A DNA stretch of 64,000 bases, from assembly GCA_024402535.1 (NCBI GenBank), contig JAKSTN010000008.1, positions 12,012 through 76,011 on the forward strand. The letters run 5' to 3'. Every line of letters begins with the position of its first letter. Positions within the stretch are counted from its first letter, which is position 1. Below are positions 15,660 to 46,649 of the stretch, piece after piece. The notes under the pieces are model-generated. The model saw only the letters and a list, made by a program, of their open reading frames with translations. It was not told the origin of the DNA and ran no database searches. Source of the stretch: Treponema sp. GTDB taxonomy: Bacteria; Spirochaetota; Spirochaetia; Treponematales; Treponemataceae. The translations under genes were made by a program, and so were the position numbers.

Positions 15660-15679
15660 TTATAGGGAGAAAGTAAATT

Positions 15680-27531: not shown

Positions 27532-28305
27532 TTACATACAGGTGTATCCGCCGTCTACAGGAACCATGATTCCTGTAACGTAGCTTGAGCTTGGAGAAGC
27601 AAGGAAGATTGCGGCTGAATCAAGTTCGCCTTCGTTTCCGTAGCGTTCTTCCGGAATCATAGTTTTTGCATTTGCCTGGAAGAAATCTGAATCCAGGGTT
27701 TCTTTTGTAAGCGGTGTGTAGAAATAACCCGGACAGATTGCATTAACTGTGATATTGTATTTTCCCCATTCTGCTGCAAGTGCACGTGTAAGATTTACAA
27801 CACCACCTTTTGCTGCATGATATGGTGAAGAACCTGCCACTTTGTTTCCAACAAGACCGTACATTGAAGCAATATTGATAATGCGACCATATTTGTTTGG
27901 AATCATTGATTTTTTTGCAGCAGCACGAGCAACCTTAAATGTTCCGAACAGGTCAATGTTCATTTCGTGTTCAAACTGGTCGTCTGTAATGTCTTCTGCC
28001 GGAGCAACAGCACCTGTTCCGGCATTGTTAATAACGATATCAATTTTTCCGAATTTTGCAATTGTTTCATCAATTGCAGCTTCAACATTTGCAGTGTCAG
28101 TAATGTCACACTGAATAGCAAGTGTTTCAACTTTAAATTCATCAGCAATAGCTTTTGCTACTTCTTCAATTTTGTCCTTGCGGCGTGCCATTACGACAAT
28201 CTTAGCTCCCTGATTTGCAAGAGCTTTTGCCATCTGTACACCAAGACCGCCAGAAGCACCTGTTACAACTGCGACCTGTCCTGTAAGATCAAAATAATTT
28301 TTCAT
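27532..28305 (-). CDS. SDR-family oxidoreductase (gluconate 5-dehydrogenase-like)
   Basis: TGASGGLG, NNAG, catalytic YHAAK and VNAICPGYF; likely start at MKNYF. Confidence 0.9.
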   Translation of the reverse strand: MKNYFDLTGQVAVVTGASGGLGVQMAKALANQGAKIVVMARRKDKIEEVAKAIADEFKVETLAIQCDITDTANVEAAIDETIAKFGKIDIVINNAGTGAVAPAEDITDDQFEHEMNIDLFGTFKVARAAAKKSMIPNKYGRIINIASMYGLVGNKVAGSSPYHAAKGGVVNLTRALAAEWGKYNITVNAICPGYFYTPLTKETLDSDFFQANAKTMIPEERYGNEGELDSAAIFLASPSSSYVTGIMVPVDGGYTCM

Positions 28306-28375
28306 AAATACCCCCAAAAATTATTTGAAATACTAGTTAATTCAAAATCCTCAATTACATTGTCTTTATTGTTTT

Positions 28376-29836
28376 CTATTTTGTTTCGAACAAATCAAAA
28401 TAGGGTTGAATTGATTCAATTTTATAATTACCTTCACCAAAGTAATCCATAAAGATTTGGTTGTAAAGTTCGCGCGATTCCTCTGGAACCTGGAAAGTAA
28501 TTATACTACAACCTTCAAAAGCTCCTTCTTTAATTTCAAGCCACGGATATTTATTTCCTTCCTTAATAGAAATTTCATGCTGAAATCTTACATATTTCAA
28601 ACCAGAGCAGTTTTTAAAGAAACCTGACGGAAGTATAAAATAACCAGAAGATTCAAAAGTAACACCATATAAATATGGATTATCTTTAAAAGATGATGTT
28701 TCGTCAAAATATTCTGGCATCGTTACATCAACTTTTATACCTTTTTTTATAATTAAATCATTAAGTTTAGAAACTGGGAAATAATCACTTGCTTCTTTTA
28801 AATTATTTATTTCAAGAACTCTTTCATCATTTTTACTGCAAGTAATTAAAAGTTTTGAAAGTTCTTTTAAGCTAATTGGATTATCGCTGTTAAATTCTTC
28901 GTAACAGATTTTTTCATCTATGGTACTATCATAAAAAGTAACTTCATCTGGAAGAATTTCAACAAGATTATCCGGATATTCAAACAATGCTTTTGTATAA
29001 TATGAAGTTACGTGTTCGTCGGAATCCACATATATATTATTAGAAGTTTCAAAATCAATTTTCAGGCGGTAATAACCTGGTAAAAGATTTTCTCCCTTTA
29101 AACAAAAATTAAAAACTTCAACTTTATATGTAATTTCTTTTCCTTCATAATCTTCGCTAATTTCTTCAACAGTAGCCTTAGTACATTCAACATGTACACC
29201 ATCTTCATTTTCATTATTAAAAACATATTCCTGCTCAACAGAAAGACCAGTTAATGAAGCAACTACATATTTTTTTGGATTAAAATCGGGGTTCGATTCG
29301 TCATAATAAGCAGAAAAGTTTTTAGCAGGAATTGTAAACAAATACTGAAAGCTTCCAGTTTCTTCATCATTCATTTCTCTAGCCATAAGAATATTACATT
29401 CTGAAAATGGCTTATTTTCTGTTGGAACATCTACTGTAACATCAGTTACACCAACAATTGTTGAAGCCAGAACTTTTTCTCCACTCTGTCCTTTATAATA
29501 CCTGAATGCCTTTACAGAAACTGTATAACTTCCGATTGGGAGAACGAATTTCTGATTTGAATTATCAAGTTTCTGGAATTCTTTACCAAAAGAAATCTGC
29601 CAGTCTGTATATTCAGAAAAATTAAATTCCGGACGAATCATTCTGGCCGTAGTCCCGGCAATATTAAGAACCAAAACACCTGTCTGGACTTCAGTTAAAT
29701 CTTCTCCATTATCAACATAAACAACAGGAGTTTCTTTTTCTGAGTTTTTAATAAGATTGTCTTTCTGATTCATAAACTCGCAGGAGGCTAAAAGTAAAAC
29801 TCCTGAAACTAAAGCAAACATTTTTCTAATTTTCAT
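28376..29836 (-). CDS. Hypothetical lipoprotein
   Basis: Lipobox LASC; 486 aa; AT-rich; the C-terminus has BspA/LRR5-like fragments (LPSGFFKNCSGLKYV, IKEGAFEGC). Confidence 0.75.
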   Translation of the reverse strand: MKIRKMFALVSGVLLLASCEFMNQKDNLIKNSEKETPVVYVDNGEDLTEVQTGVLVLNIAGTTARMIRPEFNFSEYTDWQISFGKEFQKLDNSNQKFVLPIGSYTVSVKAFRYYKGQSGEKVLASTIVGVTDVTVDVPTENKPFSECNILMAREMNDEETGSFQYLFTIPAKNFSAYYDESNPDFNPKKYVVASLTGLSVEQEYVFNNENEDGVHVECTKATVEEISEDYEGKEITYKVEVFNFCLKGENLLPGYYRLKIDFETSNNIYVDSDEHVTSYYTKALFEYPDNLVEILPDEVTFYDSTIDEKICYEEFNSDNPISLKELSKLLITCSKNDERVLEINNLKEASDYFPVSKLNDLIIKKGIKVDVTMPEYFDETSSFKDNPYLYGVTFESSGYFILPSGFFKNCSGLKYVRFQHEISIKEGNKYPWLEIKEGAFEGCSIITFQVPEESRELYNQIFMDYFGEGNYKIESIQPYFDLFETK

Positions 29837-29841
29837 TACAA

Positions 29842-30837
29842 CTACTCCTTTTCGCCTGCGGCGATAAGTATTTTTTCAACATAACTTTTTCCCCAGTAAT
29901 CACAGAACATTTCCCATGCCTGAGGCTTGATTTCTTCAATACAGAAATATTTAAAATACCTGTATGTAGAAAGCACATAAGTATTACATTGGCGTCTGAC
30001 AGCATCTTTCTGTCCATCTGACAATTCCAGATTCTCATTTTCAATTGAATCAAAAATGATTGAAAATACAGAAGAAACAGAACAAACTTTTTCCCACCTG
30101 ACCAGATCTTCAATTTTCTGACCGGAAGAAATTCCTGTATCTACAGAATAAACATAAAGTTCATCTATTATTCCTACATATTTCTTTGCAAAATAAGTTA
30201 CAAAAAAATAAATAAGATAGTCTTCCCCCCACACGCAATAACATGGAGGTATTTTCTCAAATGCATCCAGGAAAACCTGACGCAGAACAAGCTTTCCCCA
30301 AACGAAGAAATTGATTTTATGATTGATCACCGAAAAATCAAAAACTTCTTTTCCTAAAAGTTCACCTTCAAAAAGAAGATTAGCCTTCTCTTCCATATTT
30401 TTTTTATTGTTCAAATCTACTTCGCTATGTTCAGAATCTGCATCTTTTGCAAAAACTACTTCGGCACCGCACTGAACAATATCTGCATTTTTTCCTTCTG
30501 CAAGCTTTGCCAGGACTTCAAGACATTCCGGTTTAAGAACATCATCTACATCAAGACAAAAAATATATTTTCCTTTCGCCTCGTAAACCGCATTACGCCT
30601 TGCATCAATACAGCCCATATTGCGGCTGTTCCTGAAATAATTTATTTTCTGTTTATATTTACGGCTGAAAACTTTGCAGATTTTTTTACAGTTCCAGCCT
30701 TTTTCATCAAGCCCGGGAGAACAGTCATCAACCACGATTATTTCAAAATCACGGAAAGTCTGGGCAGCTAAACTTTCCAGGCACCGCCACAAAAACTGTT
30801 CTCCTTTATAAACCGGTATACAGACAGAAATCAGCAT
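29842..30837 (-). CDS. Family 2 glycosyltransferase
   Basis: ISVCIPVY, IIVVDDCS, RNAVYEAKGKYIFCLDVDD (DxD) and FFVWGKL. Confidence 0.92.
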   Translation of the reverse strand: MLISVCIPVYKGEQFLWRCLESLAAQTFRDFEIIVVDDCSPGLDEKGWNCKKICKVFSRKYKQKINYFRNSRNMGCIDARRNAVYEAKGKYIFCLDVDDVLKPECLEVLAKLAEGKNADIVQCGAEVVFAKDADSEHSEVDLNNKKNMEEKANLLFEGELLGKEVFDFSVINHKINFFVWGKLVLRQVFLDAFEKIPPCYCVWGEDYLIYFFVTYFAKKYVGIIDELYVYSVDTGISSGQKIEDLVRWEKVCSVSSVFSIIFDSIENENLELSDGQKDAVRRQCNTYVLSTYRYFKYFCIEEIKPQAWEMFCDYWGKSYVEKILIAAGEKE

Positions 30838-30840
30838 AAA

Positions 30841-32787
30841 TTAGAATACAGAATTATCAATAGGGGCAAATTCAGATTCAAAATTACCTGCCTGATACAA
30901 ATGATTTTCAACATTTAATGATGAACCATATGTGTTTACATCAAAATAATATCCATACTCGCCATTTCTATTTACAAGAATTGAATCCATATCAGATAAA
31001 TTTACAGTTCGGATTAACGCCTTAGACTCAGAATTGGAATCAACAAAATCCAGTTCCTTACGTCTTACAGCATAGATTCTAACTGGAAGAATACTTTCAC
31101 TGTAATCACCACTATCAGTTTTTACAGTTTCATTGTTACTTAAATGTCTTATACTCTCTTCTATTATAGCTGTAGCAGACCTGTCTTTATAAAGAACTGA
31201 GAAAGAGAATCTCTGACAGTAAGGATCATCAGACCTAATATTTTCACAACGAAGAGCATAAATACATTCATTTTTTACAATTAAATCGGTAATTTGATTA
31301 TTCACAGAAACAGTACCACTTCCACCACTTTTACCCAAGATTTCACTAAGAAGATTAGATCCATTTACATCATGGTCATAATACTCATAAATGTTTTCAC
31401 ATTTTCCCTTTTCAGTATTAACAATATTATTTTCAACAGGGAATTTTACAATTTTATAAAGATAGTCATAAACATTTACAGTTTTCTCATTTTCATCATA
31501 ACCATAATTTTCTTTATAAATATGATCAGATTCAATTTCATAACCTGCTACGTATAAATGTCCGTTTTCATAAGAAACAGAAGTACAAACAGTCATATAA
31601 TCTGATACATTAATATTTGAAGGCTCTGATTCATTTTTTCTTATCAGCCAAAGATTATTCTTATCTTTTTCAGAATCAAAATAAAAACCAAACTTGTCTT
31701 TTTCATTACCGTCTTCACCAAAAGTTCGCGAACTAGTTATAAAATAAATGCAATCTCCATCAGAAGCCATTCGAGGTATAAAATATTCATCTGTAGAAAT
31801 TGTAGCAAAAGCTTCTTTTTTAGATGCAGAATAACCATTAAAAATGTTAAATTTATACTGATCTAATTGACAACCTTCGTTATTAAACTCTGCAGTGTAG
31901 AAAGAATAATTATTATCAAAACAAGATGCAGTTAATGGACTTACCCCTGAAACATATCCATATTTTTCAAAATCTGAATCAGCTCTCAATTTCCATTCTG
32001 TAGATTCCTTTTTTGTATCAGTATCAGTAGGATAAGAACCCCCTTTACTTTTATTATAATAAACATGATATTCAGGCATAATTCCTACTTCCATAGAAGC
32101 CTCCCCCCATACTCCATTACATTCAATTTCAACCTTAAGAGTATGCAAACCGGTTTCTACAGATTCAAGTTTTGAAGTATTGATAGCACAGGTTTCACCT
32201 GTTTCATGTGTTTTATTTTCAACTTCTTCACCATCCCAATACCAGATATAAGATGCACCCGGGAATTTTAATGTGGAATATTCGTAATCAAAATCATCTA
32301 CTTCAAGAACATGTTTTCCTGTAATAGAAATATTTGCCGGGTCAAAAACAGAAACTTCAACATTTCCTTCTTCTGCTTCAGATATAATTTTTGATAATTC
32401 AAGAGAAACCTTTGTTACTTTTCCAGCAAACACTTCTACATGTTCTTTTGAAGCCTCATAAAGAACATCAGATAATTCTGTATCTTCTAAAGCAAAGGCC
32501 TGAAGCTTAATAAAATAAATCCCAGGATTTACTTCTACTTTCAATTTTTCTCCACTTTTCCCTGTATTGAAAACAGAATCATTTTCATCAGCTTCATTTG
32601 AAACAGTAAGAAGAAAATTATAAATTGTCTGTTGGTTTTCTGTTTCGATTTCACGTCCTAACGCAGGACCATCGGGTAAAACTATTTCAATGAAAGATAA
32701 ACCATCAACTTTTGAATTGGACTGAGAACAAGCTGAAATAAAACCTGTTGCAAGCAGACACATTACAAGAGGCAAAAACTTTTTCAT
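30841..32787 (-). CDS. Hypothetical lipoprotein
   Basis: Lipobox ISAC; 648 aa; AT-rich; beta-rich acidic body. Confidence 0.75.
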   Translation of the reverse strand: MKKFLPLVMCLLATGFISACSQSNSKVDGLSFIEIVLPDGPALGREIETENQQTIYNFLLTVSNEADENDSVFNTGKSGEKLKVEVNPGIYFIKLQAFALEDTELSDVLYEASKEHVEVFAGKVTKVSLELSKIISEAEEGNVEVSVFDPANISITGKHVLEVDDFDYEYSTLKFPGASYIWYWDGEEVENKTHETGETCAINTSKLESVETGLHTLKVEIECNGVWGEASMEVGIMPEYHVYYNKSKGGSYPTDTDTKKESTEWKLRADSDFEKYGYVSGVSPLTASCFDNNYSFYTAEFNNEGCQLDQYKFNIFNGYSASKKEAFATISTDEYFIPRMASDGDCIYFITSSRTFGEDGNEKDKFGFYFDSEKDKNNLWLIRKNESEPSNINVSDYMTVCTSVSYENGHLYVAGYEIESDHIYKENYGYDENEKTVNVYDYLYKIVKFPVENNIVNTEKGKCENIYEYYDHDVNGSNLLSEILGKSGGSGTVSVNNQITDLIVKNECIYALRCENIRSDDPYCQRFSFSVLYKDRSATAIIEESIRHLSNNETVKTDSGDYSESILPVRIYAVRRKELDFVDSNSESKALIRTVNLSDMDSILVNRNGEYGYYFDVNTYGSSLNVENHLYQAGNFESEFAPIDNSVF

Positions 32788-32859
32788 AGAAACCCCACAT
32801 TAAAAAAACATTTTAATACATTTTATAATTTCTTTAGGATTGTAACAAGAAAAAGAAAG

Positions 32860-33441
32860 TTATTCGTATTCTTCGATGATTTCTTCTGCAATTTCCCGAC
32901 GGGAACGACGACGGTCCATAGAAAGTTTTTCGATATGTTTATGAGCATCAGCTTCAGACATTTTTTCGTTTTCAATAAGAAGCCATTTTGCTTTATTAAC
33001 AATACGAATATCCTGCATTTTATCCTGAAGAGATTTCTTTTCAATTTCCATTTTCTGGATTCTGAAAGTCATTGCACTAAGCATACGGCATGCAGTATAA
33101 AAAATTTCAGGACTTACAGGTTTTGGAAGAGTGACAACCCCTTCTTCTTCAACCTGGCTTGATGCCTGTTCATACATATCATTCTGAACCAGAAGCATGA
33201 TTCCCATATTTGTATCAGCAAAACTATCCGCAAACATTACTCCGTGTTCATCACTTAAAGGTGAATCTACAATGAGAATATCTACTGGAAGTTCGAGAAG
33301 TTTTCGACGGGCATCACTTCCGCTGGTTGCATGAAATACAGGCGAAAAATCTGCAGGCGGCATAATGCTTTTTATCATCTGATAAAAGCTGTCGCTTTCT
33401 GAGACAATCATTACTTTTCGCGGTGTCTTTAATTTTGCCAT
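32860..33441 (-). CDS. ANTAR-domain protein with atypical receiver domain
   Basis: C-terminal ANTAR helices IVNKAKWLLIENEKMSEADAHKHIEKLSMDRRRSRREIAEEI; REC-like N-terminus (VDSPLSDEHG, LPKP) lacking the acidic pair. Confidence 0.9.
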   Translation of the reverse strand: MAKLKTPRKVMIVSESDSFYQMIKSIMPPADFSPVFHATSGSDARRKLLELPVDILIVDSPLSDEHGVMFADSFADTNMGIMLLVQNDMYEQASSQVEEEGVVTLPKPVSPEIFYTACRMLSAMTFRIQKMEIEKKSLQDKMQDIRIVNKAKWLLIENEKMSEADAHKHIEKLSMDRRRSRREIAEEIIEEYE

Positions 33442-33456
33442 TTGGAAAACCCGAAA

Positions 33457-34674
33457 CTAATTACTTGCTGTAAGACAATCAATCATACTCTGAGGCAGAG
33501 ATTTCTTAATAAACTCACTTCCTCGTGCTTTATCAATTGCCGAAGAAAGAGATTCCGGAAGCTTCTTCAACTTAGATGTAATTTCAGTTGGAGCTGTGTA
33601 CATGTTCATTTCAACAGGATCTGGAAGAGGAAGGTTCTTTTCTATTCCGTCAAGTCCTGCAAGAATAATAAGTGCATAAGCAACGTAAGGGTTTGTACAA
33701 GGATCCGGTGAACGAACTTCAATTCTTGTTTCTTCGTCGCCACGGGTAGCAGGTACACGAATCAACTGAGTTCTGTTCTGTCTTCCCCAGCCTACATATT
33801 TAGGTGCCTTGTCTGAACCAAGTCTTTCGTAAGAGTTCAGAACAGGATTCAGGAAAGCAGTCATTTCTTCAATGTGTTCCAGAATACCAGCCAGGAACTG
33901 AGGAAGGACATCTTTTCCGTCTTTCGACTTTACAGATAAACTGATATGGAAACCGTTTCCGCTTTTTCTGCTTAAAGGTTTAGGACTGAAATCTGCAGTA
34001 AGACCGTTGCGTACGGCACAGGTTCTGACAACTGTCATAAGGTTTATAATATTGTCAGCTGTTTTCATAGGACTGGCACGACGGATATCAATCTGATTCT
34101 GCCCTGGTCCTTCTTCGTGATGAGAAGATTCAGGATGAATATCCATCTCTTTAAGAGTAAGTACAATTTCACGGCGGATATTTTCGCCTTTGTCCGCAGG
34201 AGCAACATCAAGATAGCCTGCATTATCAAAAGGATTTTTTGTAGGATTTCCTTTTTCATCATTCTGGAAAAGATAAAACTCACATTCAGAACCGATTTTT
34301 ACATTAAGACCTGCAGCCTTCACTTTTTCCTGTGCCTGCCACAGAATAAAGCGGCCGTCACGTTCAAAAGGAGTTCCATCAGAATTTCGTATTTCACAGA
34401 ACATACGAACAACTTTTCCGGTTGTGCTTCTCCATGGAAGAACTGTAAGACTTGAAGGAATAGGTACAAGGAAAAGATCCGAATGGTCTGGAGTTGCAAA
34501 ACCGTTTATTGCAGAACCATCAAAAGAAATACCATACTCAAAGGCCCGGTCAAGTTGTTCCGGTGTAATTGCAAGATTCTTAAGATTTCCTAAAAAATCA
34601 CAAAAAGCAAGACGTATAAACTTAACATCTTCCTGTCTGATAAACTCAATTACTTCTTCTTTTGAATAGTCCAT
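33457..34674 (-). CDS. Glutamine synthetase type I-like protein with substituted catalytic residues
   Basis: FDGS, GSECEFYLF, HHEEGPGQ, GFH, NRTQLIRVP and RIEVRSPDP show the GS fold. At 405 aa it is shorter than canonical GSI (see findings). Confidence 0.9.
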   Translation of the reverse strand: MDYSKEEVIEFIRQEDVKFIRLAFCDFLGNLKNLAITPEQLDRAFEYGISFDGSAINGFATPDHSDLFLVPIPSSLTVLPWRSTTGKVVRMFCEIRNSDGTPFERDGRFILWQAQEKVKAAGLNVKIGSECEFYLFQNDEKGNPTKNPFDNAGYLDVAPADKGENIRREIVLTLKEMDIHPESSHHEEGPGQNQIDIRRASPMKTADNIINLMTVVRTCAVRNGLTADFSPKPLSRKSGNGFHISLSVKSKDGKDVLPQFLAGILEHIEEMTAFLNPVLNSYERLGSDKAPKYVGWGRQNRTQLIRVPATRGDEETRIEVRSPDPCTNPYVAYALIILAGLDGIEKNLPLPDPVEMNMYTAPTEITSKLKKLPESLSSAIDKARGSEFIKKSLPQSMIDCLTASN

Positions 34675-34746
34675 TTCAATTTCTCCAAAACATGCAGTTA
34701 TTTGATTTTATTATATTTTTTTTCTATAATTACTTCCATATATATT

Positions 34747-35721
34747 ATGAAAAAATTTGTATTTTATCTAACAGTAATTTTCTCACTCCTTTCTATGTCC
34801 TGTGCATCAAACAAGATTGTAAATACACTCTCTACAGGACTTGCAGGAGCAAACGAAAAAGGCATTCCTAATAAACAGAAAAAAGCAAAAAAGAATGCCA
34901 AACCAGATGCAATGTTTGCCATCACAAGTGACAGCGATATTACTCTTGTCGGTGACTTTTTCCCTACTGCCTTAAAAATGTATGAAATCCTTCAGAGCCA
35001 GAATCCTGAACACCTTGGACTTATGAGTCAGACAGGTTCTCTAAATGTAATGTATGCCAATGCATTCGTTCAGTCTCCTGCAGAACTTCTTCCTATCGAT
35101 CAGTTTGACAAACAGAATGAAGAATTCATCCGTGCTGAATATCATTATCTTAAAGGAAGAGATTTCTGTCTGAACGCTCTGGATGGCCGCCACAAAGGTT
35201 TCAAAAACCTGATTGAATCAGCTGATGAAAATCAGATTTCAGAAGCAGTAGATATGCTCGATAAGAATGATGTTACAACAGCTTACTGGCTTGGTGCCGG
35301 ATGGCTTGGTGCATTCTCTCTGGATCCGCTGAACCCGGAACTTCTTGGAAATCTTTCTGCTCCTGTTGCTGTTCTTGAAAAAGCACTTTCTCTCAAAAAC
35401 GATTATGTTGATGTTTATGAAGTTCTTGCACGTTTCTATGCCGCAGCTCCAGAAGGATTTGGCGGAAATATGGAAAAAGGTATGGAATACTGTGAAACCG
35501 CAATGAAACTTACAGGCGGAACAACACCAAACCCTTACATCATAAAAGCAGAATGTTTCTGTATTCCTACAGGTGATGAAGAAGGTTTTGTAGATAATTT
35601 ACGCAAAGCCCTTAACATAAATCCGGATGATAATCCTTCAACAAGACTTACAACTACTATCAGTCAGAAGAAAGCAAAAAAACTTTTGGATTCCAAAGGT
35701 GACTACTTTCTTGAATGGTAA
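34747..35721 (+). CDS. TRAP-T transporter T component (TatT) lipoprotein
   Basis: Lipobox SMSC; DSDITLVGDFFPTALKMYE, YANAFVQ and YWLGAGWLGAFSLDP; first gene of a T-P-QM operon. Confidence 0.85.
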   Translation: MKKFVFYLTVIFSLLSMSCASNKIVNTLSTGLAGANEKGIPNKQKKAKKNAKPDAMFAITSDSDITLVGDFFPTALKMYEILQSQNPEHLGLMSQTGSLNVMYANAFVQSPAELLPIDQFDKQNEEFIRAEYHYLKGRDFCLNALDGRHKGFKNLIESADENQISEAVDMLDKNDVTTAYWLGAGWLGAFSLDPLNPELLGNLSAPVAVLEKALSLKNDYVDVYEVLARFYAAAPEGFGGNMEKGMEYCETAMKLTGGTTPNPYIIKAECFCIPTGDEEGFVDNLRKALNINPDDNPSTRLTTTISQKKAKKLLDSKGDYFLEW

Positions 35722-35739
35722 TATTTAAGAGGTGAAAAA

Positions 35740-36762
35740 ATGAAAAAAGCACTTATTACAGCAATTATCTCAGCAGTTACTCTTTTTTCCGCTGCTGCAC
35801 AGACAACACTTAAAATTGCAACAATCGCACCATCCCGCTCAGTTTGGGATATTGAATCAAAACGCATTTCCCAGGAATGGGCAAAAATTACAAACGGACA
35901 GGTAAAAATGCAGTTCATGAATGCAACTGCAATGGGCGGAGAAACAGAAGTTGTTTCAAAGCTTAATTCTGTTCGCCCTGGTCAGAAAGCTCCTATCGAT
36001 GGCGCAGTTTTCACAAACATTGGTATTTCAGCTCTGGCTCCAGACACAAATATTTTCACTCTTTGTGCACCTTTCCTTTTCCGCAACCAGGAAGAAATTG
36101 ACCTTATTTACGAAACATTCAAACCTCAGATTTCTAAAGCACTTTCAGAAAAAGGTTATGTTCTTATTGGTAAGTTTATTGTTGGATGGGCATACTTTTA
36201 TACAAAGAAACCAATTCACAACAGTGCAGATCTTAAATCACAGAAACTTTCAGTTGGTGGAATGGGACTCTCAGACCTGACTGATTCTTTCAAAGCTGCA
36301 GGCTACAAAACAGAAGATGTTCCTGCTAATAAAATGCTCCAGAGCATGAAAACTCCTGGTGGCCTTGAAGGATTCTACACAATTCCTATGTATGGCTATG
36401 CAGGTCAGTATTACAAAGAACTTCCATATATTCTGAACATTCCACTTTGTCCAATCATCTGTTCTTTTATTATCAATGAAAAAACATGGAACAGTTTCTC
36501 TGAAGCTCAGAGAGCTGAAATGACAGAATGTATCAAGAAAGCAGAACAGACTTTTGTTGAAGAACAGAAAAATGCAGATGCTGAATATCTTGACCTTTGC
36601 GTTAAAGGCGGATGTACTCTGGTAACACTCAATGACAGCGAATTAAAGGCTATGGAAGAAAGCCTTAGAAAAGACAGCGAAGTTATGACATCAACAGGTA
36701 TCATCGACAAAAAATTCTATGACGATATTCAGAAAGTTCTGAAAGAATACCGCGGAGAGTAA
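35740..36762 (+). CDS. dctP: TRAP substrate-binding protein (DctP/TatP)
   Basis: Signal peptide; TLKIATIAPSRSVW and GGETEVVSKL, typical of the DctP family. Confidence 0.88.
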   Translation: MKKALITAIISAVTLFSAAAQTTLKIATIAPSRSVWDIESKRISQEWAKITNGQVKMQFMNATAMGGETEVVSKLNSVRPGQKAPIDGAVFTNIGISALAPDTNIFTLCAPFLFRNQEEIDLIYETFKPQISKALSEKGYVLIGKFIVGWAYFYTKKPIHNSADLKSQKLSVGGMGLSDLTDSFKAAGYKTEDVPANKMLQSMKTPGGLEGFYTIPMYGYAGQYYKELPYILNIPLCPIICSFIINEKTWNSFSEAQRAEMTECIKKAEQTFVEEQKNADAEYLDLCVKGGCTLVTLNDSELKAMEESLRKDSEVMTSTGIIDKKFYDDIQKVLKEYRGE

Positions 36763-36783
36763 ATATTTCTTTGGAGTTCCCCA

Positions 36784-38637
36784 ATGCTTAGAAAAATTGA
36801 AGACTGGATTTCATCAGGGCTGGTTTTTATACTTGCAGTTATTCCTCTTGTAATTAAATTTATTCAGGGCCCGTTAAACATTCCTGTTATGGGTGCTGAT
36901 TCAGCAATGGTCAATTTTGTTTTCCTTTTCTCATGCATTGCCGGAATCGTAACCTGGCGAGATGATCGTCATCTGAACCTTGCTTCTTTTACAGACCGTT
37001 TCCCTATTTGGTTTCAGAAAGTTTCAAAAGAAGTAATGACTTCTGTTACGGTCTGTATTCTTACAGCCCTTTTTCTTGACTGTCTCTGCCAGATTTCAAA
37101 CTCACTTCAGTTTACAGAAAGCTTTTGGGGAATAAGTACAAAACTTATTTTTGCTTTCCTGCCTCTTTGCTACCTTTCTATGATAGCAATGAAAATTTAT
37201 TCAAACATTTCTGAAAGCGAAAAAAAATCTACATCATGGATTTCAGCATGTGTAGGAATTATCCTTTCATTCTTCATTTCCCAAAGTTCAATTACAGGAA
37301 TTCTTTATTTCCTTTTTGGCATAGAAAACGTTCCGGCATTATATGCTATCAATGAATGGTGGATTTCTTTCTCACATGCCACAATTTGGATTTTTGTAAT
37401 TTTCCTGATTTTCCTGGCATTCCTTGGTCTTCCACTTTTCCTTGTCCTTGGTGGTATTTCATATATTCTTTTTTCACAAAGTGGCGGGTACGTTGATGTA
37501 ATTCCACTTGAAACTTACAGAATTCTTACAGACCGTAATATTGCTGCTATTCCACTTTTTACAATTGCAGGCTACATTCTTTCGCAGTCCAGCGCAGGAA
37601 AACGTTATGTTGAAGTTTTCAAAAGCCTTTTCGGATGGTTTCGTGGTGGTACTGTAGTTGCTGCCGTAATCGTTACAACATTCTTCAGTACATTTACAGG
37701 CGTTTCCGGAGTTACAATTCTTGCTCTTGGTTCCCTTCTTACAGTGGTACTTACAGGAAACGGCTACGACCAGGACAGAGCAGAAAGCCTTGTTACATCA
37801 AGCGGAGCAATCGGGCTTTTGTTCCCGCCTAGCGCAGCAATAATTATGTACGCATCAACAAACTATTTTTCAGTTGATGTATTTGAACTTTTCAAAGGTT
37901 CGGTTTTACCAGGTCTTCTTCTTGCAATTTCAATGATTGCAGTAGGAATCTATTTTGACAGACAAAAAGAACGCCCTCCTTTTTCATTTAAAGAAATTGG
38001 AAAATCTATATGGCATTGTATCCCAGAACTTTTAATGCCGTTTTTCATCTGTATTTTCTATTTTAATGGCATTTTTGACCTTTTCGAAGTTTCAGCTTTT
38101 TCTGTAATTTACGCCTTTGTTGTTTCAACTTTAATCAGAAAAGACTTTGACTTCAAAAAATCTGTGGAAGTCATTTCATCAAGTGTTCCGGTTTCCGGTG
38201 GTGTTCTCTTCATTCTGGGAGCAGCCAGCGGCATCAGCTACTTTATGCTTGATGCAAACATTCCATATATCCTTACAGAATTTATAAGTCAGTACGTTCA
38301 CTCTCCATATGTATTCCTCATCCTTATGAACATTTTCCTGCTCATAATCGGATGTCTTATGGATATGTTCAGTGCAATTCTGATTGTATCTCCTCTGCTA
38401 CTTCCAATTGCAGAAAACTTTGGAATAGCCCCTGTACAGGCAGCAGTTATTTTCCTTTTGAATCTTTCAATTGGATTTTTAACACCACCTGTTGGAATGG
38501 ATCTTTTTATTGCATCCTATGCTTTCAATAAGCCGCTTCCAAAAGTAATTAAAGGAATGCTTCCATTTTTTATCGCCCAAATAGTAATATTGATACTTGT
38601 AACTTATGTACCTTTTTTTACTCAAGTTTTTCTATAA
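36784..38637 (+). CDS. TRAP fused small/large permease (DctQM)
   Basis: N-terminal 4-TM Q region, then AIPLFTIAGYIL, SGAIGLLFPPS and IGFLTPPVGMDLF. Confidence 0.9.
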   Translation: MLRKIEDWISSGLVFILAVIPLVIKFIQGPLNIPVMGADSAMVNFVFLFSCIAGIVTWRDDRHLNLASFTDRFPIWFQKVSKEVMTSVTVCILTALFLDCLCQISNSLQFTESFWGISTKLIFAFLPLCYLSMIAMKIYSNISESEKKSTSWISACVGIILSFFISQSSITGILYFLFGIENVPALYAINEWWISFSHATIWIFVIFLIFLAFLGLPLFLVLGGISYILFSQSGGYVDVIPLETYRILTDRNIAAIPLFTIAGYILSQSSAGKRYVEVFKSLFGWFRGGTVVAAVIVTTFFSTFTGVSGVTILALGSLLTVVLTGNGYDQDRAESLVTSSGAIGLLFPPSAAIIMYASTNYFSVDVFELFKGSVLPGLLLAISMIAVGIYFDRQKERPPFSFKEIGKSIWHCIPELLMPFFICIFYFNGIFDLFEVSAFSVIYAFVVSTLIRKDFDFKKSVEVISSSVPVSGGVLFILGAASGISYFMLDANIPYILTEFISQYVHSPYVFLILMNIFLLIIGCLMDMFSAILIVSPLLLPIAENFGIAPVQAAVIFLLNLSIGFLTPPVGMDLFIASYAFNKPLPKVIKGMLPFFIAQIVILILVTYVPFFTQVFL

Positions 38638-40685: not shown

Positions 40686-40701
40686 TTTTGTGGAGGACAA
40701 A

Positions 40702-42171
40702 ATGACAAAACGTACGGACTGTGTTTATATTTCACTTCCTAGTGACAGATACACACCTTTTTCTCTTGCAAAAAAAATCGGGGCAAAAGCAATCCTCGAA
40801 AGTGCAAGATTCAACCAGGGAAAAGATAGATATTCCATTCTTATGACAGAAGAAGCTTTTCATATTCTTCAGGATGATGAAGGCATTGCTTTTATGATTG
40901 ATGGACGCCGTGTTCCATTTACAGAAAAAACAGTTGCTTCTTCAGGCGGCCAGATTGAAATGATTGCACCAGGTTCTACTGTTCCACATACACCAGATAT
41001 TCTTGATGCCCTTCTTTACGTTGCAGAAGAAAACGAACTTCCTGTAAAAGATATTCCTCTTCCAGCTTCCGGCGTTGGATACCTTTCTTATGAATTCTGT
41101 GCAAGATGTGACACAATCAATCTTGCTCCACAGACAGACGAATTAAAGATTCCTGAAAGTGAATTTGTTGTTGGTCACCTTTATGTTGTTTTTGACCATT
41201 TCTCTGAAAAACTCCACATTTTCGGATTGAACTATACAGAACATCAGATTGATCTTGAAAAAGCTGTTGAAAACCTTAAGAAACGTCTTAACGATCTGGA
41301 CTTCAGTTACCTTTCTGAACCGGAAGAAAATATGCCTTATCGCATCATGACTGATCTTGAAGTTTCAGAAAAAGAATATAAAGACAAAGTTGTAGCATTG
41401 AAAAAAGAAATTGTTGCAGGAAATATTTTCCAGGCTGTTCCTAGCCGCAGACTTCAGATTGAATGTGAAAACTCAGCAATGGAAATTTACAGAAGACTCC
41501 GTTCAATCAACCCAAGTCCTTACCTTCTTTTCATTGATTTTGGTGACAGACAGCTGGTTGGTTCAAGTCCTGAAAGTCTTGTTCGCGTACGCGACGGCAT
41601 TGCATCAATTCGCCCTATTGCAGGAACAAGACGCCGTGGTAAGGATGCAGCAGAAGATGAAGCACTCAAACAGAATCTTCTGGGTGATCCAAAAGAAAAA
41701 TCAGAACATCTTATGCTTGTAGACCTGGCCCGTAATGACCTTGGACGTGTTTGTGAAGCTGGCACTGTTGAAGTTACTCGTTACATGGACTGTGAATACT
41801 TCAGCCATGTTATGCATCTTGTAAGTGACGTTCAGGGAAAAGTTCGTAAAGACTTCAAACAGATTCAGGTTCTCCGTTCAGCCTTCCCTGCAGGAACTGT
41901 TTCAGGTTCTCCAAAAATCAGTGCAATCGAAATTTTAAGTCGTCTTGAAAAAGTTCGCAGACGTTTCTATGCCGGTGCTGTGGGATACATTCAGACAAGC
42001 GGAGATCTGGACTTCTGTATTGGAATCCGCTGTGCATTGAAACAGGATGCTACATGGACACTTCAGGCCGGTGGCGGAATTGTTTACGACAGTAACCCTG
42101 ACCGTGAATGGGAAGAAACAAATGAAAAGCTCGGCGCACTTAAAGCCGTTGTTACTGGTGAAAAAAAATAA
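40702..42171 (+). CDS. trpE: Anthranilate synthase component I
   Basis: ILES, GNIFQAVPSRR, NPSPY, RPIAGTRRRG, EHLMLVDLARND and FPAGTVSGSPK; SD GGAGG. Confidence 0.96.
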   Translation: MTKRTDCVYISLPSDRYTPFSLAKKIGAKAILESARFNQGKDRYSILMTEEAFHILQDDEGIAFMIDGRRVPFTEKTVASSGGQIEMIAPGSTVPHTPDILDALLYVAEENELPVKDIPLPASGVGYLSYEFCARCDTINLAPQTDELKIPESEFVVGHLYVVFDHFSEKLHIFGLNYTEHQIDLEKAVENLKKRLNDLDFSYLSEPEENMPYRIMTDLEVSEKEYKDKVVALKKEIVAGNIFQAVPSRRLQIECENSAMEIYRRLRSINPSPYLLFIDFGDRQLVGSSPESLVRVRDGIASIRPIAGTRRRGKDAAEDEALKQNLLGDPKEKSEHLMLVDLARNDLGRVCEAGTVEVTRYMDCEYFSHVMHLVSDVQGKVRKDFKQIQVLRSAFPAGTVSGSPKISAIEILSRLEKVRRRFYAGAVGYIQTSGDLDFCIGIRCALKQDATWTLQAGGGIVYDSNPDREWEETNEKLGALKAVVTGEKK

Positions 42172-42184
42172 GGAGTGATTAAAA

Positions 42185-43783
42185 ATGATTTTAGTAATTG
42201 ATAACTACGATAGTTTTACATATAACGTTGTTCAGAGTCTTCAGCGCCTTGCTCAGGAAGAGGTAAAAGTAATCCGATCAAAAGAAATTACTGTAGAACA
42301 GATTGAAGAAATGAATCCTTCTCGCCTGGTAATCAGTCCGGGTCCTGGAACACCAAGTGAAGCCGGAGTTTCTATTGAAGCAATCAAATACTTTGCAGGA
42401 AAGATTCCTATTCTTGGCGTTTGTCTTGGACATCAGGCAATTGGTGAAGCCTTTGGTGCAAAAATTGTTCAGGCTAAAAGAATCTGCCACGGCGTGGTAG
42501 AAGAAATGGATACAGACGGACGCGGTGTATTCCGCATCATGGGTAAAAAAGGAAAATTTACTCGTTACCATTCACTGGCAATTGATGAATCAACACTTTC
42601 TCCGGACTTTGAAGTAACAGCCCGTTCACAAGACGGCGAAATTATGGGTGTACGCCACAAGACAATGATTATTGAAGGCGTTCAGTTCCACCCTGAATCA
42701 ATTGCATCTGAAAACGGCGACGATATTTTCAGAGCTTTCTTAAGCTACCGTCGTGAAAATCTGAACGTACCAGGCCTTTTGAACAAGCTTGTTGCAAAAG
42801 AAGACCTTACAGAAGAAGAAGCTTCCCTTTTCATGGAAAATCTTGCAGACGGAACTCTGGATGAAAAAGTTACATCTGCAGTTCTTATGGGACTTGCATG
42901 TAAAGGTGCCGCTGTTTCTGAAATCGTAGGATTTGCAAAAGCACTTAAAAAAGTTCAGAAACCACTTCCAGTTGATTTTACAAACCATGCTGAAATTGTT
43001 GGAACAGGTGGTGACGGAAAAGGTTCTTTCAACATCAGTTCCCTTTCATCTATTGTTGCAGCTAGCTGCGGACAGATGGTTACAAAACATGGAAACAGAG
43101 CTGTCAGTTCAAAATCCGGTGCTGCTGATTTCTTTGAAAACCTTGGGGTCAACATCATGGCTGATCCTGCAAAAACATGCCAGCTTGTTCAGGAAACTAA
43201 TTTCGGCTTCCTTATGGCAACTGTTTACCATGCAGCAATGCGCTTTGCAGCTCCTGTTCGAAAGGCAATGGGTATCAAAACAATCATGAACATTATGGGA
43301 CCTCTTCTGAACCCCGCTGGAGCTGAATACGAAGTTCTTGGTGTTTACTCTAAGGACCTGATGTCAACTTACGCTCACGCTGCAAAACAGCTTGGTGCAA
43401 AACGTGTAATGGTAATTACAAGTGACGACGGATATGATGAAATCAGTCCATGCGCAAAAACACATGTATTCCAGATTAACGGAGACGGAAAAGAATATCA
43501 GTATATAATTGATCCTAAAAACTTCGGTCTTGAAAACATGAACGAAGAAGAACTTATGGGTGGTGACGGAAAAACAAATGCCGAACTTGCTCTTGAAGTT
43601 CTGAACGGCAAAGGACGTCCGACAATCCGTGCGGCCGTTGGACTCAACGCCGGTGCTGTCCTTTACCTTTCTGGAAAAGCTAAAACAATGAAAGAAGGTT
43701 TTGATATGGCAGTTAATGCAATGGATTCAGGCATTACACTTAAAAAACTTGAACAGATTGTTGAAGTTTCAAAAAGCCTTTAA
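42185..43783 (+). CDS. trpGD: Fused TrpG glutamine amidotransferase / TrpD anthranilate phosphoribosyltransferase
   Basis: IDNYDSFT, GVCLGHQ and GVQFHPES, then GTGGDG, KHGNRAVSSKSGAAD and DGYDEIS. Confidence 0.95.
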   Translation: MILVIDNYDSFTYNVVQSLQRLAQEEVKVIRSKEITVEQIEEMNPSRLVISPGPGTPSEAGVSIEAIKYFAGKIPILGVCLGHQAIGEAFGAKIVQAKRICHGVVEEMDTDGRGVFRIMGKKGKFTRYHSLAIDESTLSPDFEVTARSQDGEIMGVRHKTMIIEGVQFHPESIASENGDDIFRAFLSYRRENLNVPGLLNKLVAKEDLTEEEASLFMENLADGTLDEKVTSAVLMGLACKGAAVSEIVGFAKALKKVQKPLPVDFTNHAEIVGTGGDGKGSFNISSLSSIVAASCGQMVTKHGNRAVSSKSGAADFFENLGVNIMADPAKTCQLVQETNFGFLMATVYHAAMRFAAPVRKAMGIKTIMNIMGPLLNPAGAEYEVLGVYSKDLMSTYAHAAKQLGAKRVMVITSDDGYDEISPCAKTHVFQINGDGKEYQYIIDPKNFGLENMNEEELMGGDGKTNAELALEVLNGKGRPTIRAAVGLNAGAVLYLSGKAKTMKEGFDMAVNAMDSGITLKKLEQIVEVSKSL

Positions 43784-43804
43784 TCAAAACTATTGGATTA
43801 CAAA

Positions 43805-45370
43805 ATGGCAAACATACTTAAAGAGATCTGTGACAGAAGGCTAAGCGATATAGCGAAGAAAGGATACTCCCTTGGGCATGAAATACCTGAAACAAGAAAC
43901 AGGCCCGTTGTTCCTTTTCTTCCGAATCCTGGAACAATTCTTGAAGTAAAACGGGCAAGTCCAAGTAAAGGCGATATTATGCCTGACCTGGACTCCGTTC
44001 AGACTGCAGGAAATTATGTAAATGCTGGAACCGCTGCCATCTCTGTTCTGACAGAAGAAAATTATTTCAAAGGAACACTGGAAGATCTTAAAGCTGTAGC
44101 TGAATACGTTAACTCAAACGGTAACAAGGCCGCAGTTTTAAGAAAGGACTTTCTTCTTGAACCTGAAGAAATTGAAATTGCATACCGCTGTGGAGCTGAT
44201 GCAGTTCTATTGATTGCTCGTATTCTTGAAACTGAAAAACTTTTAGAAATGACTTCAAAAGCATTCAGTCTTGGGCTTTCAATTCTCCTTGAACTCCGGG
44301 ACGAAGAAGCAGTTGAAAAGGCTTTCAAAGTTCTACGCTTAGCAAAAGAAATGAATGCTGAAGATAAAGTTGTTCTTGGAGTAAACTCCCGGGACCTTAA
44401 GACTTTCACAATCGATCTTCTCATTCCTTTGAAAATTAAATGTATGATCGAAAAGAGATTCGAAAGTCTTCCTGAAAATGAAAGACCTTCGAAAATCCGT
44501 GTCATTTCAGAAAGCGGAGTTCTTTCACCTGAGGCTGCTTATTTTACAGGAAGCCTTGGTTTTGACGGAATACTTATTGGCGAAGCCGTAGCAAAAGACA
44601 GTCTTGCAGCCTGTGAATATGTGAAAGGATTTCTGTCTGGTGCAGAAGCAGCTTCTGAAAACAAAGAAACATATTCAAAAGATTTCTGGAAAAAGATTGC
44701 AGGTAAAATCAATAAATATGAAAAAGATGGCAAAGGTCGTCCTCTTGTAAAAATCTGTGGAATCACAAATGAAGAAGATGCAGAAAAAGCCGCTTTAAGC
44801 GGAGCCGACTTGCTTGGTTTTATCTGTGAAGAAAAGTTCGGCCGCCATGCAGACCTTTCAAAAATCGAAAATATAAGGAAATGTACTGTAAATGCATGTA
44901 CAAAAGCCGGCATTGAAGCCCCATGCTTTATTGGTGTAATTACAATGCCTGAAAGTCCTGAAGCACAGAAAGTTTATGAACTTCTTTCAGAAGGAATTTT
45001 TGATGCAATTCAGTTCCATGGATGCGAAGGAAATCTTCAGAAAGGATACAAAGCATTCCGCTTTGGTTCAGAAGACCAGCTTTCAAAACTCAGCGAAAAC
45101 TACAATTCAGGTAATATGAGACTTCTTCTGGACGCTTATATTCCAGGCGTTGATGGCGGAACTGGTTCTCTTATTCCGGAAAGCCTTGTTCAGAAAGCTT
45201 CCGAAAAAGGAAAACTCTGGATGGCTGGTGGAATTAATCCTGAGAATGTATACAATATCATACACAAGTTCAATCCGGAAATGATTGATATTTCAAGCGG
45301 AGTTGAGAAAAGCATTGGAATAAAAGACCACGACCTTATAGACAAACTGTTTAAGGAGATAAACAAATGA
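43805..45370 (+). CDS. trpCF: Fused indole-3-glycerol-phosphate synthase / PRA isomerase
   Basis: EVKRASPSKG, SVLTEENYFKG, LRKDFLL, GVNSRDL and SESG, then VKICGIT, LDAY..GGTG and AGGINPEN..DISSGVE. The start may instead be TTG at 43793. Confidence 0.93.
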   Translation: MANILKEICDRRLSDIAKKGYSLGHEIPETRNRPVVPFLPNPGTILEVKRASPSKGDIMPDLDSVQTAGNYVNAGTAAISVLTEENYFKGTLEDLKAVAEYVNSNGNKAAVLRKDFLLEPEEIEIAYRCGADAVLLIARILETEKLLEMTSKAFSLGLSILLELRDEEAVEKAFKVLRLAKEMNAEDKVVLGVNSRDLKTFTIDLLIPLKIKCMIEKRFESLPENERPSKIRVISESGVLSPEAAYFTGSLGFDGILIGEAVAKDSLAACEYVKGFLSGAEAASENKETYSKDFWKKIAGKINKYEKDGKGRPLVKICGITNEEDAEKAALSGADLLGFICEEKFGRHADLSKIENIRKCTVNACTKAGIEAPCFIGVITMPESPEAQKVYELLSEGIFDAIQFHGCEGNLQKGYKAFRFGSEDQLSKLSENYNSGNMRLLLDAYIPGVDGGTGSLIPESLVQKASEKGKLWMAGGINPENVYNIIHKFNPEMIDISSGVEKSIGIKDHDLIDKLFKEINK

Positions 45371-46632
45371 CATATTCAACAGATGGATTTTTTGATAACT
45401 ACGGAGGCAAATACGTAGCAGAAGTTCTGCGTCGTCCGCTGGACGAACTTGAAGTTGCCTTCAAAAAATATATGGCAGATCCTGAATTCATTGAGGAACT
45501 GAACATTATTCGCCGCGACTACATTGGCCGCGAAACACCACTCTACTATGCACCTACAGCAACAAAGCTTCTTGGCGGTGCCCAGATTTACATCAAACTT
45601 GAAGGTCTTGCAAATACTGGGGCACACAAAATCAATAACGCCATCGGTCAGTGTCTTCTTGCAAAGCGCATGGGAAAACAGCGCATTATCGCAGAAACAG
45701 GTGCTGGTCAGCACGGTCTTGCTACAGCCGCAGCCTGCGCAAAACTCGGGCTTGACTGTACAATCTACATGGGCGAAATTGACGTAAAGCGCCAGCAGCC
45801 TAACGTTGCCACAATGGAAATGTACGGTGCAAAAGTTCACGCAGTAAAATCTGGAAGCCGTACACTGAAAGATGCAGTAAACGAGGCAATGCGCGACTGG
45901 GCAGCTCACCCTGATACAACACATTATGTTCTTGGTTCTGCTCTTGGCCCTGCTCCATTCCCTGATATCGTTCGCGAATTTCAGAGTGTTATCGGATACG
46001 AAGTTGAAAAACAGTGCAAAGAAAGAAACATTGATGTTGCTGCAATGGTTGCCTGTGTTGGCGGCGGTTCAAACTCAATCGGATTCTTTGCTCCGTTCAT
46101 CGACAAAAAAGAACCACGTCTTATCGGTGCAGAAGCCGGCGGCATTGGACCTGGAGTTGGTGAAAACGCCAGCCGCATGACAGGTAATGCAAGTCGTGAA
46201 GGTATTGTTCAGGGGTATAAAAGTCGCTTCCTTCTTGATGAAGACGGACAGGCTCTTCCTACCCGTTCTATTTCAGCCGGTCTTGACTACATGGGAATCG
46301 GGCCACAGCTTGCAGCTCTTGGTGCCTCAGGCCGCGTAGAATTCACTTCAATTCTTGATAAGGAAGCACTGGAAGCAATTCAGTTCTTTGCAAAGAATGA
46401 AGGTGTTCTTTTTGCCATGGAAAGTGCCCATGCAGGGGCCGCTGCAATGAAGATTGCAAAAGAACTTCCAAAAGACAAAGCGGTAATCATCAATATGTCA
46501 GGACGCGGAGACAAAGATCTCTTCATTACAAGTCCTGTATTCAGAAAGCAGGAATGGATTGACTTCCTTAAAGCCGAAGTTGAACGCCTTGAAAGCGATT
46601 CAGAAATCCACTCATCAAAGGTAATGAACTAA
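45367..46632 (+). CDS. trpB: Tryptophan synthase beta chain
   Basis: TGAHKINN (PLP lysine), ETGAGQHG, CVGGGSN and SISAGLDY. Confidence 0.98.
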   Translation: MTYSTDGFFDNYGGKYVAEVLRRPLDELEVAFKKYMADPEFIEELNIIRRDYIGRETPLYYAPTATKLLGGAQIYIKLEGLANTGAHKINNAIGQCLLAKRMGKQRIIAETGAGQHGLATAAACAKLGLDCTIYMGEIDVKRQQPNVATMEMYGAKVHAVKSGSRTLKDAVNEAMRDWAAHPDTTHYVLGSALGPAPFPDIVREFQSVIGYEVEKQCKERNIDVAAMVACVGGGSNSIGFFAPFIDKKEPRLIGAEAGGIGPGVGENASRMTGNASREGIVQGYKSRFLLDEDGQALPTRSISAGLDYMGIGPQLAALGASGRVEFTSILDKEALEAIQFFAKNEGVLFAMESAHAGAAAMKIAKELPKDKAVIINMSGRGDKDLFITSPVFRKQEWIDFLKAEVERLESDSEIHSSKVMN

Positions 46633-46649
46633 TACAGGGGAATAAAGCT

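Follow-up and report, generated by a model that had tools for sequence, protein, structure and literature searches.

In clostridia, the adjacency of glnA, which encodes a glutamine synthetase (GS), to nitR, and antitermination by NitR, are already known (PMC6316151). The arrangement in Clostridium thermocellum runs from a type III GS (GSIII; Clo1313_2038) through glutamate synthase (GOGAT; Clo1313_2036-2032) to a type I GS (GS-I; Clo1313_2031) and an ANTAR protein (Clo1313_2030) (PMC9888227; PMC4676874). Phosphorylation-independent, receiver-like ANTAR proteins with an adjacent ligand-binding partner are represented by AmiC-AmiR and NasS-NasT (PMC3795266; PMC12591593), and in Bacillus subtilis a GS of type I-alpha (GSI-alpha) serves as a nitrogen sensor for the regulators TnrA and GlnR through protein contact. 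Here a gene pair from Treponema sp. was analysed, at positions 32,860 to 34,674 of a 64,000-nucleotide (64-kb) stretch of contig JAKSTN010000008.1, hereafter the window. As in the clostridial glnA-nitR pairs of C. saccharobutylicum NCP262 and C. thermocellum (Clo1313_2031/2030), a gene of the GSI-alpha type, here for a GS-like protein, is followed on the same strand by a receiver and ANTAR gene (PMC6316151; PMC4676874); coordinates are collected in Table 1. Judged from sequence comparison, the two would form one signalling module of the glnA-nitR type, in which a GS-derived sensor, probably of 2-oxoglutarate (2-OG), gates a phosphorylation-independent ANTAR antiterminator; we give this interpretation somewhat better than even chances. 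A preliminary description of the same DNA had proposed a similar partnership with glutamine as the signal.

The GS-like protein matched Gln-synt_N (1.5e-24) and Gln-synt_C (1.9e-81) in Pfam, and its closest solved structures were the GSI-alpha enzymes of Methanosarcina mazei and B. subtilis (E ~1e-100). Against TIGR00653, the NCBIfam equivalog for GlnA, it scored 339.4 bits, below the cutoff of 429.15. An AlphaFold2 model built on 60 relatives had a predicted local distance difference test (pLDDT) score of 91.4 and a predicted template modelling (pTM) score of 0.93, and superposed best on the active, 2-OG-bound GS of M. mazei (8s59; TM score 0.95). Individual residues were checked by alignment to B. 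subtilis GS (PDB 4lnf, Met1 numbering) and M. mazei GS, and in the DNA. The position of the catalytic flap glutamate, B. subtilis E304 (M. mazei E307), is occupied by K289 (codon AAG at 33808-33810), in a flap loop one residue shorter than that of B. subtilis GS; this glutamate is held to be catalytic in all GS types (PMC11800386; PMC11957540). S238 stands at the position of N240, and five of the six metal ligands are kept (E132, E134, E189, H245 and E333), the sixth, E196, being replaced by Q194. Two internal deletions, at B. subtilis positions 253-259 and 267-271, remove 12-13 residues in total, and the protein stops 7 residues past position 414 (of ~444), with about 30 C-terminal residues absent. 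In M. mazei GS, the interface between hexamers is built from the C-terminal helices H14/H15 (PMC11957540). D53, E132, E134, E189, H245, R298, R316, R321, E333 and R335 are all retained. Set against type I-alpha GS as a class, the protein agrees in fold and departs in equivalog score, flap glutamate, metal set and C-terminal helices. The preliminary description had already recorded the glutamine codon at E196, the altered flap, the serine at N240, the missing C-terminal helical part and the kept residues D53, E132/E134, E189, H245, R298, R316, E333 and R335, and all of these were present; the loss of residues after the H245 strand, which it put at about 15, was also found, at the smaller size given above.

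The same features recur in about 250 homologues and are thus not the product of chance. Family counts were taken from two sets of GS-like sequences (n=177 and n=72). The flap glutamate was lysine in 175/177 and 70/72 of them, the position of N240 was hardly ever asparagine in either set, and both deletions and the short C-terminus were seen in 99% of the family. The exchange of E196 for glutamine was confined to 11/177 sequences, a small Treponema subclade (the window, L001-L005 and P0001-P0005); what the whole family shares is E304K and the loss of N240, together with both deletions and the truncated C-terminus. An aspartate preceding the flap lysine was considered as a compensating acid and excluded: that position is variable in the family, so no acid compensates. 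Given these catalytic losses, glutamine synthesis by the GS-like protein has most likely fallen below a useful rate. A decaying, functionless paralogue, whose position beside the ANTAR gene is a historical leftover, would also be expected to carry several catalytic lesions and truncations. Such decay is very improbable, since the open reading frame (ORF) is intact in the ~250 homologues, which span two phyla and share about 100 invariant or near-invariant columns, and since the AlphaFold2 model is confident, the gene appears in metatranscriptomes and the synteny is strict; decay is effectively refuted by this conservation.

An exhaustive protein search returned 981 representatives below 1e-30, of which 148 were compared by motif extraction, a MAFFT alignment being too noisy and misplacing the gaps of the window protein. 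The short proteins with a lysine flap nested inside a wider divergent group. A sister family of ~439 aa, full length and free of the deletions, was found in Desulfotomaculum, Peptococcaceae, Christensenellales, Oscillospiraceae and a Treponema; it carries Glu or Asp in the flap in 117/120 members and keeps all catalytic residues, N240 being absent here too. The Desulfotomaculum locus of the sister family has the same GSIII / GOGAT / GS / ANTAR layout. As this family, with its Glu flap, is also ANTAR-linked, the partnership of GS and ANTAR protein is older than the loss of the flap glutamate, and the short family of the window looks like a further step toward a non-catalytic partner. Among the top matches of the exhaustive search were two giant proteins with signal-peptide-like N-termini, P0121 (4424 aa) and P0122 (2757 aa), containing 12 and 6 GS-like repeats, respectively.

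The two genes of the pair were inseparable in the loci surveyed. In a genome scan, the ANTAR gene lay directly downstream and on the same strand in 56/56 loci of the GS-like family, from Treponema, Lachnospiraceae, Oscillospiraceae, Holdemanella and others, with gaps of mostly 0-70 nt. In a second set, seeded with the ANTAR protein and made up of the best 80 of at least 587 metagenome relatives, 71 loci had enough upstream sequence, and the GS-like gene was upstream in 71/71. The pairing proposed in the preliminary description is therefore obligate across both sets, and the ANTAR protein has an obligately adjacent partner gene as in the AmiC-AmiR and NasS-NasT systems, which it also resembles in its receiver-like domain. 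The partners in those systems have a periplasmic-binding-protein fold, unlike the oligomeric GS fold found here, and the complex is putative. The loci closest to the window pair belong to animal-gut Treponema metagenome-assembled genomes (86-92% identity). Portions of the pair were found in two gut metatranscriptome runs. In one of these, X10, a 240-nt contig identical to window positions 33420-33659 crosses the junction of the two genes, and a second contig, identical to 34569-34796, runs from the 5' end of the GS-like gene into the divergent intergenic region. These contigs are consistent with co-transcription of the two genes; DNA carry-over is also possible. One relative, P0216 (365 aa), joins GS-like residues 1-263 to ANTAR residues 61-193, which may reflect a true in-frame deletion or faulty assembly. 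P0241 was considered as a Rosetta-stone fusion of GS and ANTAR protein and rejected, its tail being unrelated sequence.

The ANTAR domain of the gene 15 nt downstream, described earlier as intact, scored 57.8 bits (cutoff 27.3; 9.6e-16), and residues K141, K152, H167, E171 and K172 of this domain were invariant in alignment A2. The Response_reg match of the same protein was barely over its cutoff (30.7 against 30.2 bits). Its nearest relatives in the PDB were Rv1626, AmiR and an EutV-like regulator, and receiver residues were read from an alignment to Rv1626, an EutV-like regulator and CheY. The acidic pair is reduced to S14-E15, with one acidic residue left, and the Thr/Ser position is Q86. 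The preliminary description had stated that both were missing; this holds for S14 and Q86, not for the acidic E15, and the retained D59 and K107 had gone unmentioned. Across 57 ANTAR partners the phospho-acceptor position was N in 39, D in 12, L in 4 and S in 2, with aspartate confined to the 12 partners of the Treponema clade; the D12 position was never acidic and the T87 position never threonine. These observations support a pseudo-receiver across the family. No histidine kinase was present in the ~15 kb of the window neighbourhood, as had been noted for the adjacent genes, and no kinase family recurred among 90 downstream neighbours of the relatives' pairs. With Asn, Leu or Ser replacing the acceptor Asp in most partners, these proteins need some other input, and no neighbour but the GS-like gene is conserved. 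In a second Treponema clade (L006-L011), an HD-GYP-like gene directly follows the ANTAR gene (for example L008:7774-9156), and a small ORF with a borderline Hpt match (24.2 bits, cutoff 24.6) lies ~3.4 kb upstream (for example L008:2632-2982).

Two kinds of ligand were compared for the GS-like protein. In B. subtilis GS, feedback inhibition depends on a lock in which glutamine bridges Glu304 and Arg62 of the Asp50' loop, and substitution of the arginine abolishes inhibition (PMC10799026). Both residues of this lock are absent, position 62 being T in the window protein and D/G/S/T in the family and position 304 being lysine; this double loss weakens the case for glutamine sensing drawn from the B. 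subtilis enzyme. The allosteric 2-OG motif of M. mazei GS consists of F24, R26, R87, R172', R173' and S189' (PMC11957540), equivalent to F18, R20, R88, R174, R175 and S191 in the GS of Methanothermococcus thermolithotrophicus, and it is complete in the window protein as F19, R21, R82, R167, R168 and S184. Its positions were retained in 173-177/177 sequences of the GS-like family and in 118-120/120 of the sister family, and Y20 and E36 of B. subtilis GS, which clash with 2-OG, are Phe and Ser/Ala in the GS-like family. In its full motif and lack of clash residues the protein resembles the archaeal GSI-alpha enzymes (M. mazei GlnA1 and M. thermolithotrophicus GS), which are also its best match in sequence and structure. 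Those enzymes are active, with a Glu flap, C-terminal helices and a 2-OG-driven dodecamer, unlike the GS-like protein, which has neither flap glutamate nor helices and is paired with an ANTAR protein. 2-OG reports nitrogen limitation. From these alignments, 2-OG is a more likely ligand than glutamine. Because the oligomers of M. mazei GS assemble in response to 2-OG (PMC11957540) and the ring interface of that enzyme is missing here, a 2-OG-dependent change of state would be the most economical model.

It seems distinctly improbable that the GS-like protein senses glutamine as the feedback-inhibited B. subtilis enzyme does and then captures the ANTAR protein as that enzyme captures TnrA or GlnR. 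The amino-acid pocket is mostly retained (E134, E189, G241, H245, R298 and R335), and GS binding directly to regulators has precedent (PMC6316151; PMC10799026). Such sensing would, however, require the lock of Glu304 and Arg62 (PMC10799026), of which the family keeps neither residue, and N240, which contacts the alpha-amino group of glutamate or glutamine, is not conserved. Moreover, the tails of TnrA and GlnR bind the dodecamer and tetradecamer forms of GS, whereas the GS-like protein is without the inter-ring helices. The proposed module would share with GS-TnrA/GlnR the use of a GSI-alpha protein as a nitrogen sensor acting on a regulator by contact; it differs in having no Arg62/Glu304 lock and in its output, an RNA-binding antiterminator rather than a DNA binder of the MerR type.

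The nitrogen connection comes from the gene surroundings in relatives. In Firmicutes the pair stands last in a split-GOGAT operon (GATase_2, Glu_synthase, optional Fer4 and Pyr_redox_2, GXGXG), and in many of these relatives a GSIII gene is divergently transcribed beside that operon. A search for a separate GS had been suggested earlier; one is thus next door in many relatives, and none was found in the 64-kb window. An attenuator recurs in these loci: behind a sigma-70-like promoter lies a hexaloop hairpin with closing pairs G/A-C and the loop A-A-N-G-R-C, and the 3' half of this hairpin also serves as the 5' arm in a long, U-tract-bearing terminator. The loop matches the A1/G4 signature of ANTAR target hexaloops (PMC3369931). 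Altogether 52 attenuators were counted in Firmicute relatives, before GSIII, GOGAT or the pair: 19 precede GSIII, often as 2-3 in tandem, at least 10 precede GOGAT, and 4 lie immediately in front of a GS-like gene that has no GOGAT operon ahead of it. The element occurs in loci L013-L056 (for example L024:2485-2555, plus strand, and L027:1794-2001, minus strand) and, in addition to the 52, in L137 and L138. The stem covaries (5/7 pairs changing on both sides, 91.7% of cells paired), a measure biased toward the structure, since instances were picked for having a stem. Folding of full leaders gave terminators of -39.4 and -35.8 kcal/mol (z ~-8.5); for the small hairpin by itself the energies were -6.7 and -8.6. 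The attenuators resemble the targets of EutV/EutW and classical ANTAR proteins in the A1/G4 hexaloop, the overlap of hairpin and terminator and the association with nitrogen-metabolism genes (PMC3369931), and differ in having one hairpin per terminator, often in 2-3 tandem units, in place of the classical P1/P2 pair, and no kinase partner. No Rfam family matched the attenuator loci at E <= 0.1, and none matched the 64-kb window at gathering thresholds.

The attenuators appear to extend to treponemes. In the sister-family Treponema locus L138 one precedes a GATase_2/GOGAT gene (7262-7370, plus strand, 23.7 bits), so treponemes use this RNA, and the targets of the window pair are probably elsewhere in its genome. 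An unbiased scan for a single hairpin overlapping a terminator found 34 instances in Firmicutes and none in either the window or the Treponema loci of its family. The classic dual-hairpin ANTAR RNAs that the preliminary description had suggested looking for were at background in the loci overall, and the window held 5 against 3.3 in shuffles, none near the pair; what did emerge from that suggestion were the single-hairpin attenuators before GSIII and GOGAT in relatives. Two sets of matches to covariance model R1 were rejected: the best one in the window, at 55822-55848, obtained with filters off, is antisense within a gene, with a 7-nt loop and no terminator, and those in Treponema clade 2 loci are located within a Mem_trans ORF. 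The earlier proposal of antitermination at nitrogen genes is thus borne out by the Firmicute attenuators and by one Treponema GOGAT gene, and not by the window, which has no target RNA or nitrogen gene. A tie between the module and antitermination of GS/GOGAT genes is supported, the window itself being without a target. Of the glnA-nitR arrangement, the window has the gene pair; the linkage to GS/GOGAT genes and to antitermination is seen in the Firmicute relatives, with an identical layout. Unlike glnA-nitR, the window protein is of the short type, in which the flap carries lysine, N240 and the C-terminal helices are gone and two deletions are present, and its pair is solitary in Treponema, away from nitrogen genes within the 64 kb.

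Several observations weigh against the sensor module. Apart from the flap glutamate and N240, the ligand-binding and catalytic residues of the GS-like family are nearly invariant, and such a pocket suits a ligand-binding sensor and equally an enzyme of altered chemistry. The sister family was followed by an ANTAR gene in 3/3 contexts, with a receiver carrying Asn at the phospho-acceptor; as a family with a Glu flap is also ANTAR-paired, pairing alone is uninformative on the loss of catalysis, and loss of the flap glutamate did not track with ANTAR adjacency, a correspondence that the preliminary description had proposed to test for. The window receiver keeps the phospho-acceptor Asp59 and the beta5 Lys107, and also Glu15, which makes phosphorylation conceivable in Treponema, and with the receiver aspartate retained in the L006-L011 clade a phosphorelay input is conceivable there. 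Neither the window nor 12 Treponema loci of the same family contained an attenuator, by regular expression, covariance model or unbiased scan, or a gene for GS, GOGAT or amtB.

In another explanation, which has some plausibility and which we still judge unlikely, the GS-like protein is an enzyme, be it a GS of low activity or a gamma-glutamyl ligase that uses another amine acceptor, and the ANTAR protein is a co-transcribed regulator with input from elsewhere. Such input could come from a small ligand or a PII protein or, in Treponema, from an orphan kinase or acetyl phosphate that acts on D59. The metal ligands, the ATP- and glutamate-binding arginines and the Asp/Ser of the Asp50' loop are almost invariant, the sister family is catalytically complete except for N240, and D59 and K107 persist in the window receiver, all as expected of an enzyme with a separately controlled neighbour. 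A 2007 study by Stutz, cited in PMC6316151, is also reported to have found that the classical clostridial glnA adjoining nitR encodes an active GS, which favours the same explanation. An enzyme would, however, have to work with lysine for its catalytic flap glutamate in 99% of the family and no compensating acid, and in the window clade without one metal ligand besides; the protein also falls under the NCBI GlnA equivalog cutoff. Most ANTAR partners have a residue other than Asp at the phospho-acceptor, and the GS-like gene is their only conserved neighbour.

In the sensor module that we favour, the GS-like protein would be the signal-input subunit and the ANTAR protein the RNA-binding output. 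The former retains the pocket for nucleotide, metal and glutamate and, at the subunit interface, a complete 2-OG pocket of archaeal type; it has lost the catalytic flap glutamate, Asn240, a surface hairpin and the ring-joining C-terminal helices, and in the window subclade a metal ligand. It would report nitrogen status, most probably as 2-OG and perhaps with occupancy of the old active site in addition. We infer that this state is passed on through direct contact with the degenerate receiver, in the manner of AmiC-AmiR and NasS-NasT, a 2-OG-dependent change of the GS-like protein releasing or capturing the ANTAR protein. Once freed, the ANTAR protein would bind the hexaloop hairpin in the nascent leader, the overlapping terminator could not form, and antitermination would turn on type III GS, GOGAT and related genes. 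A 2017 study of C. thermocellum by Rydzak reportedly found, in the words of its title, that deleting the type I glnA (Clo1313_2031) "deregulates nitrogen metabolism", and nitrogen-assimilation genes are said to have risen although glutamine rose. If this phenotype holds, a GS-like protein that inhibits the antiterminator would fit, the link to C. thermocellum resting on synteny, as Clo1313_2031 may be of the short or the long type. The same phenotype would also suit glutamine sensing, with the inhibitor acting under nitrogen sufficiency. No paper giving the GS partner of glnA-nitR pairs a sensor role was found in a literature search, and neither a protein partnership of GS and ANTAR nor a degenerate GS partner is mentioned in a 2025 antiterminator review or a 2025 perspective on GS regulation. 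What is new here is the degenerate-GS variant; glnA-nitR pairs, partner-controlled ANTAR proteins and GS as a regulator are known kinds.

Table 1. Features of the GS-like/ANTAR gene pair in window coordinates.
Feature	Position	Strand	Description
GS-like gene	33457..34674	-	405 aa, GSI-alpha fold, short 'K-flap' family
Metal-site n1 ligand codon	34093-34095	-	CAG = Q194 (B. subtilis E196; GQNQ vs GQHE); alignment and DNA
Altered 'E-flap'	33802..33825	-	R284-L-G-S-D-K289-A-P291 (RLGSDKAP vs B. subtilis RLVPGYEAP); Lys at catalytic Glu
Spacer, GS-like stop to ANTAR start	33442..33456	-	15 nt; both genes in same frame
AT-rich region 5' of GS-like gene	34675..34760	-	Ribosome-binding site GGAG; no leader hairpin, no terminator
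Receiver and ANTAR antiterminator gene	32860..33441	-	193 aa; Pfam
Degenerate receiver domain, residues 10-114	33100..33414	-	S14, E15, D59, Q86, K107; alignments
ANTAR RNA-binding domain, residues 137-189	32875..33033	-	PF03861, match 2-54 of 54

The remaining neighbours of the pair in the window include a TRAP transporter of the TatT type, an EAL protein, lipoproteins, a glycosyltransferase, a trp operon, purA and guaB. The transporter (TatT, DctP and a fused DctQM; 34702-38637, plus strand) is divergent from the GS-like gene and is also found in L002, L003 and L005. The trp operon (40690-47402, plus strand) is complete, with two fusions: trpE, trpG-trpD, trpC-trpF, trpB and trpA. The ANTAR gene is followed at once, on its own strand and without an intervening terminator, by a stretch of low GC content (28000-32800; 0.32 against ~0.38-0.42 elsewhere), which contains a family-2 glycosyltransferase and two large lipoprotein-like ORFs at 28376-29836 and 30841-32787 that lack a Pfam match. 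Large ORFs of 1257, 562 and 519 aa, likewise with no Pfam match, were seen at 7103-10876 (minus strand) and 13971-17239 (plus strand).

To our knowledge, many of the abundant gut and rumen anaerobes that carry the pair (Lachnospiraceae, Oscillospiraceae, Holdemanella and Treponema) have neither NtrBC nor TnrA/GlnR, and nitrogen sensing in them is poorly understood. Tentatively, and with less confidence than in the module itself, the GS paralogue may be a dedicated 2-OG receptor that, with the ANTAR protein under its control and the single-hairpin attenuator, forms the main GS/GOGAT switch in many gut Clostridia and Treponema. The attenuator RNA may be usable as a genome-wide marker of the regulon. 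If the module operates as proposed, it would account for the deregulated nitrogen metabolism reported on deletion of the C. thermocellum type I GS, would give the 2-OG pocket known from archaeal GS a place in bacterial signalling, and would provide a clear case of an enzyme turned receptor in which the intermediate, the full-length sister family with its Glu flap, is still extant.

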